From assembly GCF_053078305.1 (NCBI RefSeq), contig NZ_CP166879.1: a DNA stretch of 64,000 nucleotides. The stretch is one strand, 5' to 3'. Positions 54,601 through 60,600 of this stretch are shown here, piece after piece. The stretch's first letter is position 1, and each line of letters opens with the position of its first letter. Made by a program: the position numbers.

Positions 54601-57600
54601 AAGCCTCTTCCAGTGGAACTGGCGTATCATCGTCCTGCGTCAGAACATACACTGCCTCCGGTATCCGGCTTACCACCGCATCAATACTTATCTCTTTGTC
54701 AGGGGCAGGAAACAGCCAGAATACGCGCGGGAACAGGTCGTTGCTGATAAAACATTCAGGAATGCCCTTCATTGTGGGCCACTCAGGATACTGCGCATCC
54801 AGCACCTCCCGGGATAATGGTCTGACTGCACTACCGTCACTGAGGCATATCACGTCAAGAAGTTGTATTACACCATCGGGCAAAACCTGACGGGCGCCAG
54901 GAACACAACTGATTGTTTCCAGGCTTGCGCCAGCATCCGGTCTCGCCAGAATCACTGCCCTCACCGCATCATTGTAATAATCGCACAATTCCTGCAGGGG
55001 CCAGCGAACCATCATCGGGTCAACCAGTTGTGTATTCACACGTCCGATGATTTCTGTAATCGTCGTCATCAGTAAAACCTCTGCCTGCGTACAGGGTTGC
55101 GGTATGAAGAGTACGGGCTTGTCGCCAGTGTATGACGATATGCCCGACGGATCCCCTCAGAAAACTGCACAGAAAAATACTGTGCGCGTGACGGGTCTGA
55201 CCATGAAACACCAGTCTGCATGAACAACCGCTCAAGTGCCCCCGCAGCCACTTCTTCAGGCCATGTGAGGAGTTCATCCGGTATCTGGCTGCGTCCGGCT
55301 TTCGGAGCGACGGCATAAAGCACGCTCACCTCACCGGGAGAACAGGCAAATCGCAGGGAGCGTCCGGAGCTGATATCCACATCCCGACCGACAAAAAGCT
55401 CATGATTATCGTCAGAGATACGGATGATATGAACGCACTCCTCATCATCTTTGTCATACGGAAGCACGATTTCTTTTCCTGCCACCGGTACAACAGTAAC
55501 CTCCCGACGGCACACCAACGACTGGCGGCTGAATGCCACGGCAGCCATTGACAGAGCATCCGTCATCATAATGTTCAGTGGACCGCTGATATGACGACGG
55601 ACATATGGTAAAAAATCACTCAGTTCCGCCATGCTGTTCAGTCTCCGCAACACGACGGCAAAATGCCTCACGCACCCGGATACGGAATGCCTCAGCCGTT
55701 TCTTTCGGGTCTTTGTGAATATCCAGCTCTTCTGCCTCACACAGCGTCGCCAGCCGTGCTGAGGTGAGCTTACTTAAATCCACCTCCTGCCCGTTAACAG
55801 AAACAACAAAACTGTTCTCCGCTTCTGCCCGCGCAGCAAGCACTCTTTCCTGCGCCTGCTGTGCCTGCCGCAACTGCTCATTCTGTTGTTGCTTTTTCAG
55901 AACATCATCAAGCTCTTCATGACGAACCCAGACATCCGGAAACCCCAGCAGTTGCCAGGCCATCGCACTGTCAACATGCACCGGCTCAAGACGTGGGAAC
56001 AATGTGCGGCTTCCGGTAATGGTGTCCTTTTTCACGGGTTTTGGGCCGATATAGACAACGGCAATTTTCTCACTCATATAATTCCCCGGATAAAAAGCCC
56101 GCATGACGCGGGCCGGAAGGTTTTAATCAGTATTCCACCACGGTATAACGCAGCAGAACATTCAGGGTGCCGGTTGCAGCGGCAGTCTTAATGGTGACAG
56201 TAACCAGCTCCCCGTCACGCTGTGTGGTGTACGGCTCCACTGGCACATATCTGGCAAATTTTGCAGAAACAGCTTCGCTGTTATCGATGAGAGCATGCTC
56301 ACCGGACTTAATGCTGACGGTTGCAGTACCCAGACCACCCGTTGAAACCAGCTGGAGTGAGTTGATACGGATGCCCACTGGCAGTGAGAGAAGATGAATA
56401 ACACTGTCCGCTTCCGCAGCATTCACCGTAAATACGCCTTCTGCCACCGACTCATTACCGTGCGTACCCGTATAGACCCGTTCACTCAGTGACGGGGCAA
56501 GGATAGTCTTTGCCATAATTAATGACTCCTGAAAAAGCCGGGCGAAAACCCGGCATGGGGAAAGGAAAAAATCAGAGCTTCACTGCTGTATCAACGGCAA
56601 TCACGCCGTGATCCTGCATCTTGCCGCTCTTCTCGGGGAAACGGATTTTTTTCAGACCGTTGATCCAGCTGATTGCTATCTCAGTACGGTTATCCATATC
56701 CGTTTTCTTCTCAACCATGTTGAAGTGACCGCCCGCCTTCTGACCGTAAGCATTTGCCAGCGCCTGAGCCCCCAGTAACATGGCGCGGTCAATATTGGTT
56801 GCAGCAGCGACCTCTTTCGTGGTTGCCGTCAGGTTATTCTCTGATACCAGAACCTTTGACCCCTGATAGAAACGGATCGGCATACCCGCATACTTACGAA
56901 CCAGGATATTGCGCCACATCGCACATTCACCTTTGAACAGCGGATGATTAAAACCTTTTGCACGGTTCACGGCACGAACCATCATCTGGTTCCAGTCCTT
57001 ACCGGACGTCGAGGTGTACCAGTCATTCCACTGACGCGGCGTGACGTACAGGACGTAATATGGATCTTCTCCGTGAAGTTCATCACCGGACAGACGAACC
57101 GGCTGTAACGGATGCGCCATTTCGTCAATGAACAGGGAGAGATTGTCCACCAGGCCAATAGAAAAAATATCTGCCGCTTCAATCTGCTCAAAGCTTGTCG
57201 CATCACCGCCAAAAAAGTGACGGTCATGTGTCGGAGGCAGTACATCGTTGATCATGATTTTTTTGAATTCAGGGTGCTCCGCTGTCGGCAGAATAGTGTC
57301 GTCAGCAACAAAATCACCACGAGCTCCGGCAAGATGCACTATCGCACACTGGTCCTGCAGGTCATTAAAGTACGTCCCCAGAAGCGTTCTGGCAGAGGAT
57401 GCCAGGTTAAACTTCGTGCGCTGCTGACTCATACGTCCGCCTGCATCCACCAGGTGACGTCCCTGATTGATTTTCAGGGAGAAGTCAGCATGGCTGAGAT
57501 CCTCACCACGACCTTCAACACGCTCATCTCCCATCGTCGGACGTTTTGAGAGCTTGTGCATGATGCTGAAGGTCACTTCATCACCGGCCTGTTTGTTAAG

Positions 57601-60600
57601 GTCTGTGATACGGACAACCGGCGCACCTGCGCTGGTCTGCTTCGTGCTTTTCTTGTCCGGCGAAACCGCTTTTGGCGCTTCCTGCTGTTCAGTAAGGATA
57701 TTAACCATCGAGCGGTTGCGGTTGGCAGCAGTAAAAAGCGCCACCTGATACAGCTTATTCGCATGGGCTGATGTTACAGTCGTCATTACTTCAGTACTCC
57801 TTCAGTAAGTTACCCGAGCTTCTCCAGAAGTGCGTCTATTTCAGCATTCGTCATACCGCGCATAATCGCCTCTGCCTCTGAATGCGAAGCGCCAAGTAAC
57901 CGTTCAAAATTATCACCGGTTCCGACGGAGGCCGTGGTGCCTAAATCTGACGGGGAAGCTGGTACTGCCTGCTCCTGTTCAGCGGTCTTCACTTTCTCTT
58001 CCGCCGTTTTCCGGATATCCGTTTTGTCTGCCTTGTTGTCAGCAGACGACTCACTGACTTCACCGAAAGCAACCTGCGTACGACGGGCCACTTCAGCGAA
58101 ACGTTCAGTGAGCGTTTTGTCTTTCCATGCGGGGTCATTCTGGAGCTTCCCGTCGATGGATACAGCAACCGAGAAGCGATCCGGATCGGACTCCTGCCAC
58201 GTTTTCAGCACCGGCACGGCATTCATCGCATCAAGAACCGGTGATAAATCCTCACCACCATTACCTTCTGCCTGCTGTGTTGATTGCTGAACACGGGACT
58301 GGAGATAGTTATTTTTACGGATGAGCGAAGCCACCGCGTCACCAATTTCCGGATACATCTCCCTGATACGGGCAATCTGCTCATCAGAAATTTTTTCGTT
58401 TTCCGGTAACGGTGTGGGCTTCATACCGGCCTGGTGGATCTGAGACGTCAGCAGTTCCACCCTGCGTTTTTCTTCAGCTATCTGCCCACGAAGAAGTGCG
58501 GCTTCCTGTTCGGCCCGTTGCTTACCGGAACGTTCAGCCTCAAGGACTTCATAGGGAATGACGTGTTTACCGTCGCGGGTGAGCACCCCCTTCGCTTCCG
58601 GCTCCTTCACGTCCTGCGTCTGCTCCACACTGGCATCCGGCGTCGGTGCCACATTGTTATCGCCCGTCTGAGTCTGTGTTTCCTCATCCGCATGTTTTTC
58701 CGTGGTATCTTCCGTCACGACGTCCTGTGCGTGACTGTCAATATCCACATCCCCAAGTCCTTCCAGCATTTTTTCCAGTTGTTCCGGGGTTTCTTCACCC
58801 GTAAATTCAAAATCCATAAATAACTCCGCATGGTCTGTTTATCGGACAGATCCGAATGGTTGAGTAAATAAGGCTTATCGCTGCCCCCGCGAATAAGCGC
58901 ACCGCTCCCGGAACGCTTACCTCCGGAAACAAAAAACCCCGTACGATGACGGGGTTCAGTTGAAGCCAGAGTTTTCAGAGCGACATTTCATTCATCCGCT
59001 GTTGTAACGTATACAGCATCTGTTGCTGAAGAACGTCCTGCTCCTGTTCCATATTCTGTATGCCGGTAATGATTTCTGCCGTATGTGCCTGGTTAAGCGC
59101 ATCCACATAACGCTGCCCCTGTGTCAGGGCGACTTCCCTCTGTGCACTGGCATTATCCCGTTGTGCAGCAGCATGTGCCCTGGCGGCGTCAGCTTCCAGT
59201 TTTGCCACTCTGCCAGCCATCTCGCGCATCTGGAGTTCTGCCTGTTGTTGCTGAAGTGCCTGTTGTTGTGCCGCTACTTCCTGTTCTTCCGGCGTCATTT
59301 CATCCGGTGATTTTGGCGTCCCCAGCGCAGCACGAATACGCTCAACAAACTCCTGTTTCTGCGGCACATCCAGAAGATTAACCCACAGGTCGAGCACAAC
59401 AGCCTGCACCTGAGGCGGCAGCCCCTGAATAACCTCTGACATTCTCTGTGCAAGCTGTGCCTTAAATGCCGGTGTCTGCTGAACAGGCGCCAGCGCAATA
59501 TGTGTATTTAACCTTGAAATATCATTGGTCAGTTCACCATTATCACCTTCAGCATTGAGGACAATGGTCTGGCGACGCTGGCGATCATCGCGATTAATCA
59601 CCACTGCATGATTACGGCGTTTTTTCAGGTCATCGAGAAGATAAGCCAGCAACAGTCTTCCCACCTGCTGGCAGGCAAACTGGTAGTTATCGTTGATTTC
59701 CGCAAGGGTTGTGGCCCCCTGCTCCACCAGGTTACTGATAGCCACGCCTGACGTCGCACCTGACTCCTGCCCGAGAAATGCGGAATAAACTCCCATGGTA
59801 TCCTGGATAAGTTTTTCCGACTCCTGCATAACCTGAAACTGCTGGCTGGCAACCTGAAAATCCTGCTCAACCCGAAAAATATCTGCGACACTTTTCTGAT
59901 TTTTTCGGACCGGATTCAGTTTAATAATGCCATCCGGACGTTCGATCTGCTCCATCAGGTCGCTGTCTGACAACTGGGTGGCATCCTCGTCCATAATCAC
60001 GCGTTTGGCCTGAAGCAGCCAGGTCAGCTTGATACGACGAAAATTCACCTCATCCTGTGCCGGAATGGCGCGGGAAATTAACCCGTATGGCTCCCCGGTT
60101 TTATCCTTTCGGTATCCCCAGAAAGGAACCAGCGGAAACATCCCCTGCGGTGCACTACAGGGGCGATCCACAATAAAGTGTGGGCCCACAAACCAGGCTT
60201 CACGAATACGACTTACCCGCCCGACTTTCACCTGAACCCGCCCGGATGCCACAGCCACCGCCTGCATCAGATTATTTTTATCAAAAGCCACCACCCGTCC
60301 ATTACTGAGTTCAATCACCGGAAGACGCTCGAATGTACGGTAATAAACCACCTGAAGCAGCACACGACGGCGTTCACGCTGAAGCCATTCATTCTCCCTG
60401 CGATCCCATGACTGATACTCTTCCCATGCACTCATCAACGGACTGGGCTGGCCTTCAGTAATCGTGGTATCGACAAAACCACGCCAGTCATCAATAGCAT
60501 AATCGATAACCTGAGCCATTCCCGGGAACGTGGCTTTTGCCTCATCGGTATCCATCCAGCGGCGACGCATCAGCCACCGGCAGTCACTCAGGTCGGATTC

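Follow-up and report, generated by a model that had tools for sequence, protein, structure and literature searches.

Terminator-type hairpins around the predicted head-shell cassette of a short-tailed Stx-converting prophage

Three hairpins beside the head-shell genes

The window analysed here, a 64,000-nucleotide stretch of contig NZ_CP166879.1 from NCBI RefSeq assembly GCF_053078305.1, contains the minus-strand late region of a short-tailed Shiga toxin (Stx)-converting prophage. Terminator-type hairpins in this region follow the portal gene (T1), the major capsid gene (T2) and the gene g129 (T3). From their positions, T1-T3 appear to mark the ends of a three-gene head-shell cassette (g335, major capsid, g129) within a late operon that depends on the antiterminator Q. 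It is very probable that the three are real, selected terminator-type hairpins that bracket this cassette. Taken alone they are routine, as intrinsic terminators are expected inside a Q-antiterminated late operon and hairpins past the capsid gene are well known among phages.

The genes around the hairpins are all on the minus strand. The portal gene (58975-61119, stop codon 58977-58975) encodes 714 amino acids (aa) that match PF16510 (P22_portal, E = 4e-126). It is followed by g335 (57810-58817, 335 aa), which belongs to phrog_479, a family of unknown function, and has a Shine-Dalgarno sequence GGAG at 58827-58824. The major capsid gene (56572-57786, 404 aa) matches PF13252 (E = 3e-88), and g129 (56127-56516, 129 aa) matches phrog_486, a “virion structural protein” of the head and packaging class (E = 1e-59). 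These matches bear out the portal and capsid identities that an initial annotation of the window had proposed. In phage Sp5 the portal, g335 and capsid genes correspond to ORF60/ECs1221, ORF61/ECs1222 and ORF62/ECs1223. Systematic deletions in Sp5 have identified ORF60 as the portal and ORF62 as the gene of the major capsid protein; deletion of ORF61 resulted in no head-like particles (PMC5155283). The translated g335 protein is acidic, with many Glu, Gln and Ala residues, and this composition, together with the position of the gene between the portal and coat genes, suggests a scaffold-like protein. Domain, PHROG and PDB sequence searches detected no similarity of g335 to any characterised protein, P22 gp8 included, and no recognisable RNA-binding domain; the PDB sequence searches gave nothing meaningful for g335 or g129.

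T1 (58927-58957) begins 21 nucleotides (nt) past the portal stop codon. Its core CCCCGU(CAUCGU)ACGGGG lies at 58954-58937, with 58954-58949 paired to 58942-58937, and the stem of 6-9 base pairs (bp) can be extended to GAACCCCGU/ACGGGGUUU; on the 3' side, UUUUUUGUUU at 58936-58927 provides a tail of the form U6-G-U3. T2 (56532-56554) begins 18 nt past the capsid stop codon and consists of a 7-bp stem, GCCGGGU(UUUC)GCCCGGC at 56554-56537, followed by UUUUU at 56536-56532. T3 (56092-56114) begins 14 nt past the g129 stop codon, with GCCCGCG(UCA)UGCGGGC at 56113-56097, a stem of 7-8 bp and a following UUUUU. Each stem contains 5-6 G-C pairs, and all three sites combine the stem-loop and the U-run of an intrinsic terminator. 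The initial annotation had placed hairpins with T-runs after the portal and capsid genes on the coding strand, and both are present where it put them; its list was incomplete in that T3, which is equal in quality to T1 and T2, was missed.

The predicted fold energies are -15.4 kcal/mol for T1, -17.0 for T2 and -16.4 for T3 in contexts of 46-51 nt. Compared with shuffled sequences, T1 reaches z = -3.1 (0/200 shuffles as good), T2 z = -2.5 (3/200) and T3 z = -2.0. In a terminator scan of positions 48000-64000, 30 sites were obtained against 14.8±3.9 in shuffled sequence, with T1, T2 and T3 among the strongest minus-strand sites. Permissive scanning and best-hairpin energy discriminate poorly, and a perfect-stem criterion was used instead. 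Under the resulting strict rule (a perfect stem of 6 bp or more, 4 or more of them G-C pairs, and a run of at least 4 T), the 64-kb window contains 20 sites, 15 of them on the minus strand, and its dinucleotide shuffles contain 3.9±1.5. T1 is also unchanged across Stx-like variants in IMG/VR although the neighbouring 3' end of the portal gene varies.

The operon itself is seen in part. All open reading frames (ORFs) from 63612 to about 40000 lie on the minus strand, so the co-orientation of the late genes described in the initial annotation holds here. The 3.2 kb around T1 and T2 share 99.6% identity with Shigella phage 75/02 Stx and 99.3% with VT2-Sakai/Sp5. Of 5,426 complete E. coli genomes, 421 contain these 3.2 kb, as do 193 phage records. 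These near-identical phages (99.3-99.6%) have the order Q, stx, lysis, terminase and portal genes in a single orientation, except for bor. The window ends at position 64000, short of the Q, stx and lysis genes, and the assignment to a Q-dependent lambdoid late operon is by proxy only. Late transcription of Stx phages from the promoter PR' needs antitermination by Q past the terminator tR' (PMC7547250). Read-through by the late antiterminator, which the initial annotation presumed, is therefore to be expected, since in the near-identical phages Q, PR'/tR', stx and the lysis genes are located upstream and are oriented alike.

Conservation of the hairpins was examined in head modules from annotated phages of Vibrio, Pseudoalteromonas, Pseudomonas, Burkholderia, Klebsiella and Erwinia and from 50 species-representative bacterial genomes, in which the loci were mapped for synteny with tblastn. 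This resulted in 57 related loci from many Proteobacteria, with capsid identities of 29-94%. A hairpin was counted if its stem was perfect, was 6 bp or longer, contained 4 or more G-C pairs and lay no more than 70 nt past the stop codon. Such a G+C-rich stem follows the capsid gene in 45 of the 57 loci (79%), usually 0-25 nt past the stop. For the next gene (125-175 aa) the figure is 51 of 55 (93%), which makes the site after this gene the most conserved position of the three. Of 570 windows of the same length (72 nt) taken from inside capsid genes, 124 (22%) contain such a stem. The Fisher p-values against these coding windows, 8e-18 after the capsid gene and 2e-26 after the next gene, overstate significance, as do the Mann-Whitney p-values, and are indicative only, since the related loci are phylogenetically non-independent. 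The median best-hairpin energy is -13.7 kcal/mol in the relatives, compared with -10.1 in coding windows and -7.2 in shuffles; by this permissive measure, 53% of the coding windows also reach -10 kcal/mol.

The sequences of the hairpins vary from lineage to lineage, and it is their position and structure that are conserved; in Citrobacter, for example, the T2 stem is identical and the loop is different. The U-rich tail (at least 5 U in the next 8 nt) is less constant, being present at 11 of the 45 post-capsid hairpins and at 28 of the 51 hairpins after the next gene. Phages that do not have the post-capsid U-tract do carry U-tracts at their T1-like and T3-like sites. Aeromonas prophages are one such case: the post-capsid hairpin is without a U-tract, whereas the hairpin after the next gene (GCCCGGCC-loop-GCCGGGC followed by U5-6) and the T1-like hairpin are canonical terminators. 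The cassette thus closes with a terminator after the small head gene, and has a stem-loop, not necessarily a terminator, after the capsid gene. Comparison of these sequences suggests that at the T2 position it is the stem-loop, and not the U-tract or termination, that is conserved. As many relatives have no U-tract there, the selected function at this position would be that of a stem-loop acting on RNA, which points to a barrier at an RNA 3' end more than to termination.

The structured leader between T1 and g335

A conserved structured leader precedes g335 (58818-58935, minus strand) and is physically joined to T1. The initial annotation, which was correct on the hairpin after the portal gene, had missed this fusion. 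The first element of the leader, hairpin A (58881-58932), is a predicted imperfect helix of about 22 bp, UUGUUUCCG...CGGGGGCAG, of which the 5' strand begins in the U-tail of T1. Its 22 modelled pairs, with a central 1x1 or 2x2 mismatch, have 90-93% of cells paired. In an alignment of 11 enteric and Vibrionaceae sequences, 93% of cells are paired and 6 pairs have changed on both sides. Covariation scores 0.289, compared with 0.204±0.015 for shuffles, with 0/500 as good, and controls with a slid partner strand do not exceed 0.12. When Aeromonas sequences are added, 10 of the 22 pairs have changed on both sides, in an alignment that was fitted to the model and therefore favours the structure. 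As modelled, hairpin A also provides the largely continuous double-stranded RNA of at least about 20 bp that characterises RNase III sites.

A covariance model, R1, was built from the 11 enteric and Vibrionaceae sequences and searched against 672 kb. Exactly one same-strand match was obtained per locus, always upstream of g335, and the only other matches at E < 0.01 were opposite-strand readings of hairpin A. R1 also matches Aeromonas sequences that were not in the seed (E 2.5e-10 to 1.2e-3), and the window contains a single match, at 58935-58870 (E = 2e-21).

Two smaller motifs follow. PK1 (58871-58892, minus strand) is a conserved 22-nt motif, UCGCGGGGGCAGCGAUAAGCCU, which overlaps the 3' strand of hairpin A and could form a small pseudoknot (CGC/GCG and GGC/GCC). 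Its CAGCGA is invariant in 23 leaders; covariation is weak, with two pairs changed on both sides and none of these in stem 1. Elsewhere in the window, the core motif GCAGCGATAM shows no significant repetition. PK2 (58834-58855, minus strand), UCGGAUCUGUCCGAUAAACAGA, is a predicted H-type pseudoknot that ends 6 nt before the g335 Shine-Dalgarno GGAG. A stem 1 of 4 bp (UCGG/CCGA), a 1-nt loop, a stem 2 of 5 bp (UCUGU/ACAGA) and a 3-nt loop define its geometry. Among 12 sequences, 93.5% of cells are paired and 5 of the 9 pairs have changed on both sides, including 4 of the 5 pairs of stem 2; the covariation score is 0.508 against 0.166±0.035, with 0/500 shuffles as good. Pair 5-13 of stem 1 is GC in six, CG in four and UA in two sequences. 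PK2 therefore has the predicted structure of an H-type pseudoknot operator, that is, two crossing and covarying helices near a ribosome-binding site, and it probably modulates g335 translation.

As some PK2 instances had been picked with complementarity in mind, a test was run in which stem 2 was not required. The pattern TTCGGA-N4-TCCGATAA was found in 120 viral contigs, mostly unrelated, of which 6 carry the head module; as a sequence-only pattern it is a generic palindrome and is useful only after filtering for head-module context. All 6 head-module contigs have 4 of 4 stem 2 pairs, compared with 3 of 70 distinct sequences elsewhere (Fisher p = 3e-4); the 6 represent three different sequences, of which two come from newly found distant relatives. 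Leaders contain one to three tandem pseudoknot-like motifs with conserved CGAYAA loop residues. The Microbulbifer leader (L118, 3720-3820) has two complete PK2-type motifs and one PK1-like motif. In the leaders of Pseudomonas E220 and 8P, inspection by eye indicates a GNRA hairpin sequestering the Shine-Dalgarno sequence instead of PK2.

A common plan is found in 28 syntenic loci: terminator, hairpin A, the CAGCGA motif (PK1), often PK2, and the Shine-Dalgarno sequence. In 19 of 23 loci a canonical terminator ends at -1 to +8 nt relative to the point where the hairpin A model begins, and this contact is kept even where 0.55-2.3 kb of extra genes lie between the portal gene and g335. The portal-g335 junction is an insertion hot spot in many relatives (L070-L074, L077, L081, L083-L085, L004, L005), and the inserts are always upstream of the terminator-leader unit. 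The insert in Vibrio phage 1F273_PE002 carries genes annotated as Thoeris anti-defence and endolysin.

A promoter scan found no sigma-70-like promoter between T1 and g335, so the region must be transcribed through T1. Together with the compensatory changes, this indicates that polymerase which has gone past T1 transcribes the leader into RNA. The initial annotation had described the hairpins as attenuator-type, a term that implies regulation through a competing fold and that, in this strict sense, finds no support here. No competing fold was seen, T1 remaining fully folded in both the minimum free energy (MFE) and the centroid structure of a 176-nt segment, a result obtained with no dedicated search for an upstream competitor. 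The conserved leader structures lie downstream of T1 and so cannot influence the termination decision there.

On sequence grounds, the leader appears to be a new RNA family of a known general kind, namely a structured 5' leader with a pseudoknot. No Rfam family reaches its gathering threshold in 55500-59500; the sub-threshold matches to isrJ (22.7 bits against 37) and isrK (18.7 against 50) are on terminator hairpins only. RNAalifold applied to the raw MAFFT alignment of 23 whole leaders recovered only 6 pairs, as lengths and architectures differ between clades, and alignments of sub-elements and the covariance model were used in place of a whole-leader alignment. A search of the collection with CGCGG-N(1-3)-GCAGCGATAAGC yielded hardly anything besides Stx phages, one Vibrio phage and chance matches in coding sequence. 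Several other candidate elements were rejected. A sigma-54 promoter in the leader, assessed by eye, has a spacing that is off by one and a motif that is absent in Aeromonas. For a CsrA site in PK2, the GGA is missing from variants whose covarying pair is U-A or C-G. A “hairpin B” (GCUUAUUCGC with GCGAUAAGC) is possible in enteric versions and is not conserved in Aeromonas or Vibrionaceae.

Proposed read-through and RNA processing, and competing explanations

The favoured model combines Q-dependent read-through with differential processing and stability of the mRNA, and as a whole it is given an even chance of being right. After induction, Q-modified polymerase starting at PR' would read through T1, T2 and T3; such read-through is required, because otherwise no gene past the portal would be expressed. 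Hairpin A would then be a likely site of cleavage by a double-strand-specific (RNase III-type) enzyme, which would uncouple the terminase-portal mRNA from the head-shell mRNA. The T1 stem-loop would protect the 3' end of the upstream packaging-gene RNA, and T2 and T3 would protect the 3' ends of the g335-capsid and g335-capsid-g129 mRNAs from 3' exonucleases. The expected outcome is more message for the high-copy shell proteins than for portal or tail genes. For polymerase that is not modified by Q, in the lysogen or from inserted accessory genes, T1-T3 would act as ordinary terminators that insulate the cassette. The pseudoknot motifs by the g335 ribosome-binding site would probably tune g335 translation.

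Several points weigh against this model. Every functional step in it is inferred from sequence features. RNase III has no strict sequence consensus, and imperfect pairing over about 22 bp is consistent with cleavage by this enzyme but does not diagnose it. The U-tracts of T1-T3 in the Stx phage itself are good, and partial termination at T2 and T3 may therefore occur. Q lies outside the window, and its presence is assumed from the near-identical phages. The non-independence of the related loci and the frequency of stable folds in coding windows, both given above, likewise reduce the weight of the comparative evidence.

Partial termination would set the ratio of scaffold and capsid to downstream products, according to the initial annotation. 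In its broader form, in which the terminators are leaky even for the late complex and polymerase is lost stepwise at T2 and T3 (and at T1) to give a transcriptional gradient, this explanation is a rather unlikely one. The canonical stems and U-tracts at all three sites speak for it, as do the U-tracts at the T3-type sites of 28 of the 51 relatives. Yet a capsid needs hundreds of coat subunits per 12 portal subunits. Partial termination at T1 is unattractive because capsid and scaffold mRNA would fall below portal mRNA, opposite to the stoichiometry of assembly; for T1 the proposal would thus seem to work in the wrong direction, and it is possible only for T2 and T3. Most post-capsid hairpins in the relatives also have no U-tract, and the Q-modified polymerase resists intrinsic terminators, as described for the Stx system (PMC7547250). 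Stepwise read-through at weak terminators is nevertheless documented: in phage LUZ7, transcript ends have been mapped around the conserved N4-like capsid gene region, and leaky terminators balance expression there and in T7 (PMC9163698).

An explanation in which the hairpins are insulators only, blocking non-antiterminated transcription into the structural genes with no quantitative role in lytic growth, is unlikely. It would fit the inserts at the portal-g335 junction, which are always separated from the leader by the terminator, and the many more terminator-like sites beside accessory genes such as lom. However, it leaves unexplained both the conserved U-less hairpin right after the capsid gene and the physical fusion of T1 to a conserved helix. 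The reading in which T1 closes an upstream unit and the cassette has a start of its own, with CAGCGAUA and its surroundings as a DNA site (promoter or activator), is improbable. The core motif is conserved in sequence across distant hosts, boundaries between transcription units commonly consist of a terminator and then a promoter, and an AT-rich palindromic region is found just upstream of the leader in Vibrio phage 1F273_PE002. On the other hand, the promoter scan found nothing sigma-70-like, the Aeromonas versions are about 70% G+C, and the compensatory changes in hairpin A and in both stems of PK2 are expected of RNA and not of protein-binding DNA; the loss of signal in the slid-partner controls speaks against a DNA site as well. 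Short G+C-rich hairpins are frequent, as the 22% of 72-nt coding windows illustrates, but chance inverted repeats without function are effectively refuted: the count is about 5 times the shuffle expectation, the sites lie between genes on the coding strand, and their position is conserved in 79-93% of 55-57 loci while the sequence diverges.

Read-through with RNA processing remains the preferred account, and a further reading of the leader can be placed beside it. Tentatively, the 116-nt unit of T1, hairpin A, tandem CGAYAA pseudoknots and ribosome-binding site may be a new cis-regulatory RNA family of phages, with the pseudoknots as putative operators for a head-assembly protein. The binder would most plausibly be free scaffold-like g335, and hairpin A a putative processing site; this, too, is put forward only tentatively. 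The unit is found in Stx phages and in prophages and phages of Enterobacterales, Aeromonas, Vibrionaceae, Shewanella-type marine bacteria and more distant hosts. If the reading is true, translation or decay of the scaffold-capsid mRNA would be coupled to procapsid assembly.

Related systems and neighbouring features

The stem-loop Tφ of phage T7 lies after the capsid gene and is thought to raise the capsid message relative to that of later genes. The present locus has in common with Tφ and with LUZ7 a stem-loop right after the major capsid gene in a long late unit, with read-through needed downstream, and the conservation of this stem-loop (45/57 loci against 22% of coding windows) is what a Tφ-type element should show. 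It differs from Tφ in that the polymerase is that of the host, modified by Q, and not a phage polymerase, in that two successive hairpins (post-capsid and post-g129) are present with one more upstream of the cassette, and in that most post-capsid hairpins of the relatives do not have a U-tract.

Intercistronic stem-loops that stabilise the upstream mRNA occur in the puf and pap operons, in malEFG as repetitive extragenic palindromic (REP) sequences and at lambda tI, and T7 late mRNA contains RNase III sites. Stable hairpins at cistron boundaries and a long, nearly perfect intergenic helix (hairpin A) resemble these systems, and the expected result, unequal message levels from one operon, would be alike. 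Unusual is the fusion of hairpin A to the U-tail of a terminator.

The order portal-scaffold-coat, with a P22-type portal, is shared with phage P22, in which the scaffolding gene is reportedly autoregulated post-transcriptionally (work attributed to Casjens and Adams and to Wyckoff and Casjens, both of 1985, cited in PMC5529062); to our knowledge, no RNA operator for it has been described. This could serve as a precedent for control at the g335 leader, and no more than that. The leader of T4 gene 32 likewise has a compact H-type pseudoknot in the 5' leader near the start site; PK2 differs from it in sequence, in its tandem copies and in the CGAYAA loop residues, with no Rfam match. The put-type antiterminator RNA of HK022, two stem-loops just past a promoter that render the polymerase resistant to terminators, is only loosely similar in topology (stacked helices upstream of T2 and T3), and no promoter is nearby. 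The lambda-type Q/PR'-tR' system belongs to the same phage group, in which late genes including stx need Q-modified polymerase (PMC7547250). There, tR' is a regulated decision point beside the promoter, whereas T1-T3, placed among structural genes 14-17 kb further downstream, lack a Q-binding element, and no regulation of them is known.

The head-shell genes of clinically important short-tailed Stx phages thus sit in a conserved, hairpin-bracketed cassette. The hairpins and leader motifs are concrete, mutable elements with which to ask how hundreds of coat and scaffold subunits per portal arise from a single transcript, and the leader may give access to scaffold autoregulation. With the model R1, the head module can be annotated in prophages.

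Some distant relatives (Burkholderia DC1, Klebsiella LASTA, Erwinia PEp14 and Pseudomonas 8P) encode a CsrA-like regulator, at L009 4506-4700, L010 4570-4779, L011 4589-4780 and L008 8680-8892. In three of the four, the gene lies between the gene at the g335 position and the capsid gene and is followed by a capsid leader of 100-190 nt. The presence of these genes hints at RNA-level control of head genes in this module.

Upstream of the portal gene lie the small terminase gene (62806-63612, minus strand, phrog_370) and the large terminase gene (61119-62825, minus strand). Past g129, more head and tail genes follow, including an SU10-type adaptor and a collagen-repeat tail fibre. The mechanical ORF call for the gene after g129 starts at an ATG in the loop of T3 (56104). 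Its start is most likely at 56077, 27 nt downstream of that ATG, as the PHROG alignment covers residues 10-162 and the Sakai annotation agrees; T3 is thus most likely intergenic. In the MFE fold of 56520-56568 (minus strand), UCCUU past the capsid stop pairs across T2 with CAGGAG in the g129 Shine-Dalgarno region, a predicted pairing that could couple g129 translation to capsid translation.

Tables of Hfq-bound small RNAs (sRNAs) list no EcOnc sRNA at the T1-T3 coordinates, and the known prophage sRNA HnrS was rejected as an identity, since it is carried on Sp9, Sp10 and Sp12 and not on Sp5. A scan of the whole window with Rfam gave Ysr251 as the sole above-threshold match (11728-11921, plus strand, 189 bits), in host DNA outside the late region.

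The late region is studded with terminator-like hairpins, for example right after a lom-like gene and right before a giant gene of 2,808 aa. These further strict hairpins lie on the minus strand at 46113-46097, 45378-45360, 43998-43977, 43647-43632, 40910-40893 and 31326-31308, and on the plus strand at 51056-51075 and 54451-54474. In the Stx2a phage Stx2_09E126, and probably in two sister records, a 1.3-kb insertion lies about 30 nt into the capsid gene, at the equivalent of about window positions 57751-57756 (L119, 1650-2958); it is presumably an insertion sequence element and presumably leaves the prophage defective. A 533-bp contig of Xanthomonas pisi DSM 18956 (L090) contains a capsid fragment 100% identical to the E. 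coli Stx-phage protein, which is probably contamination.

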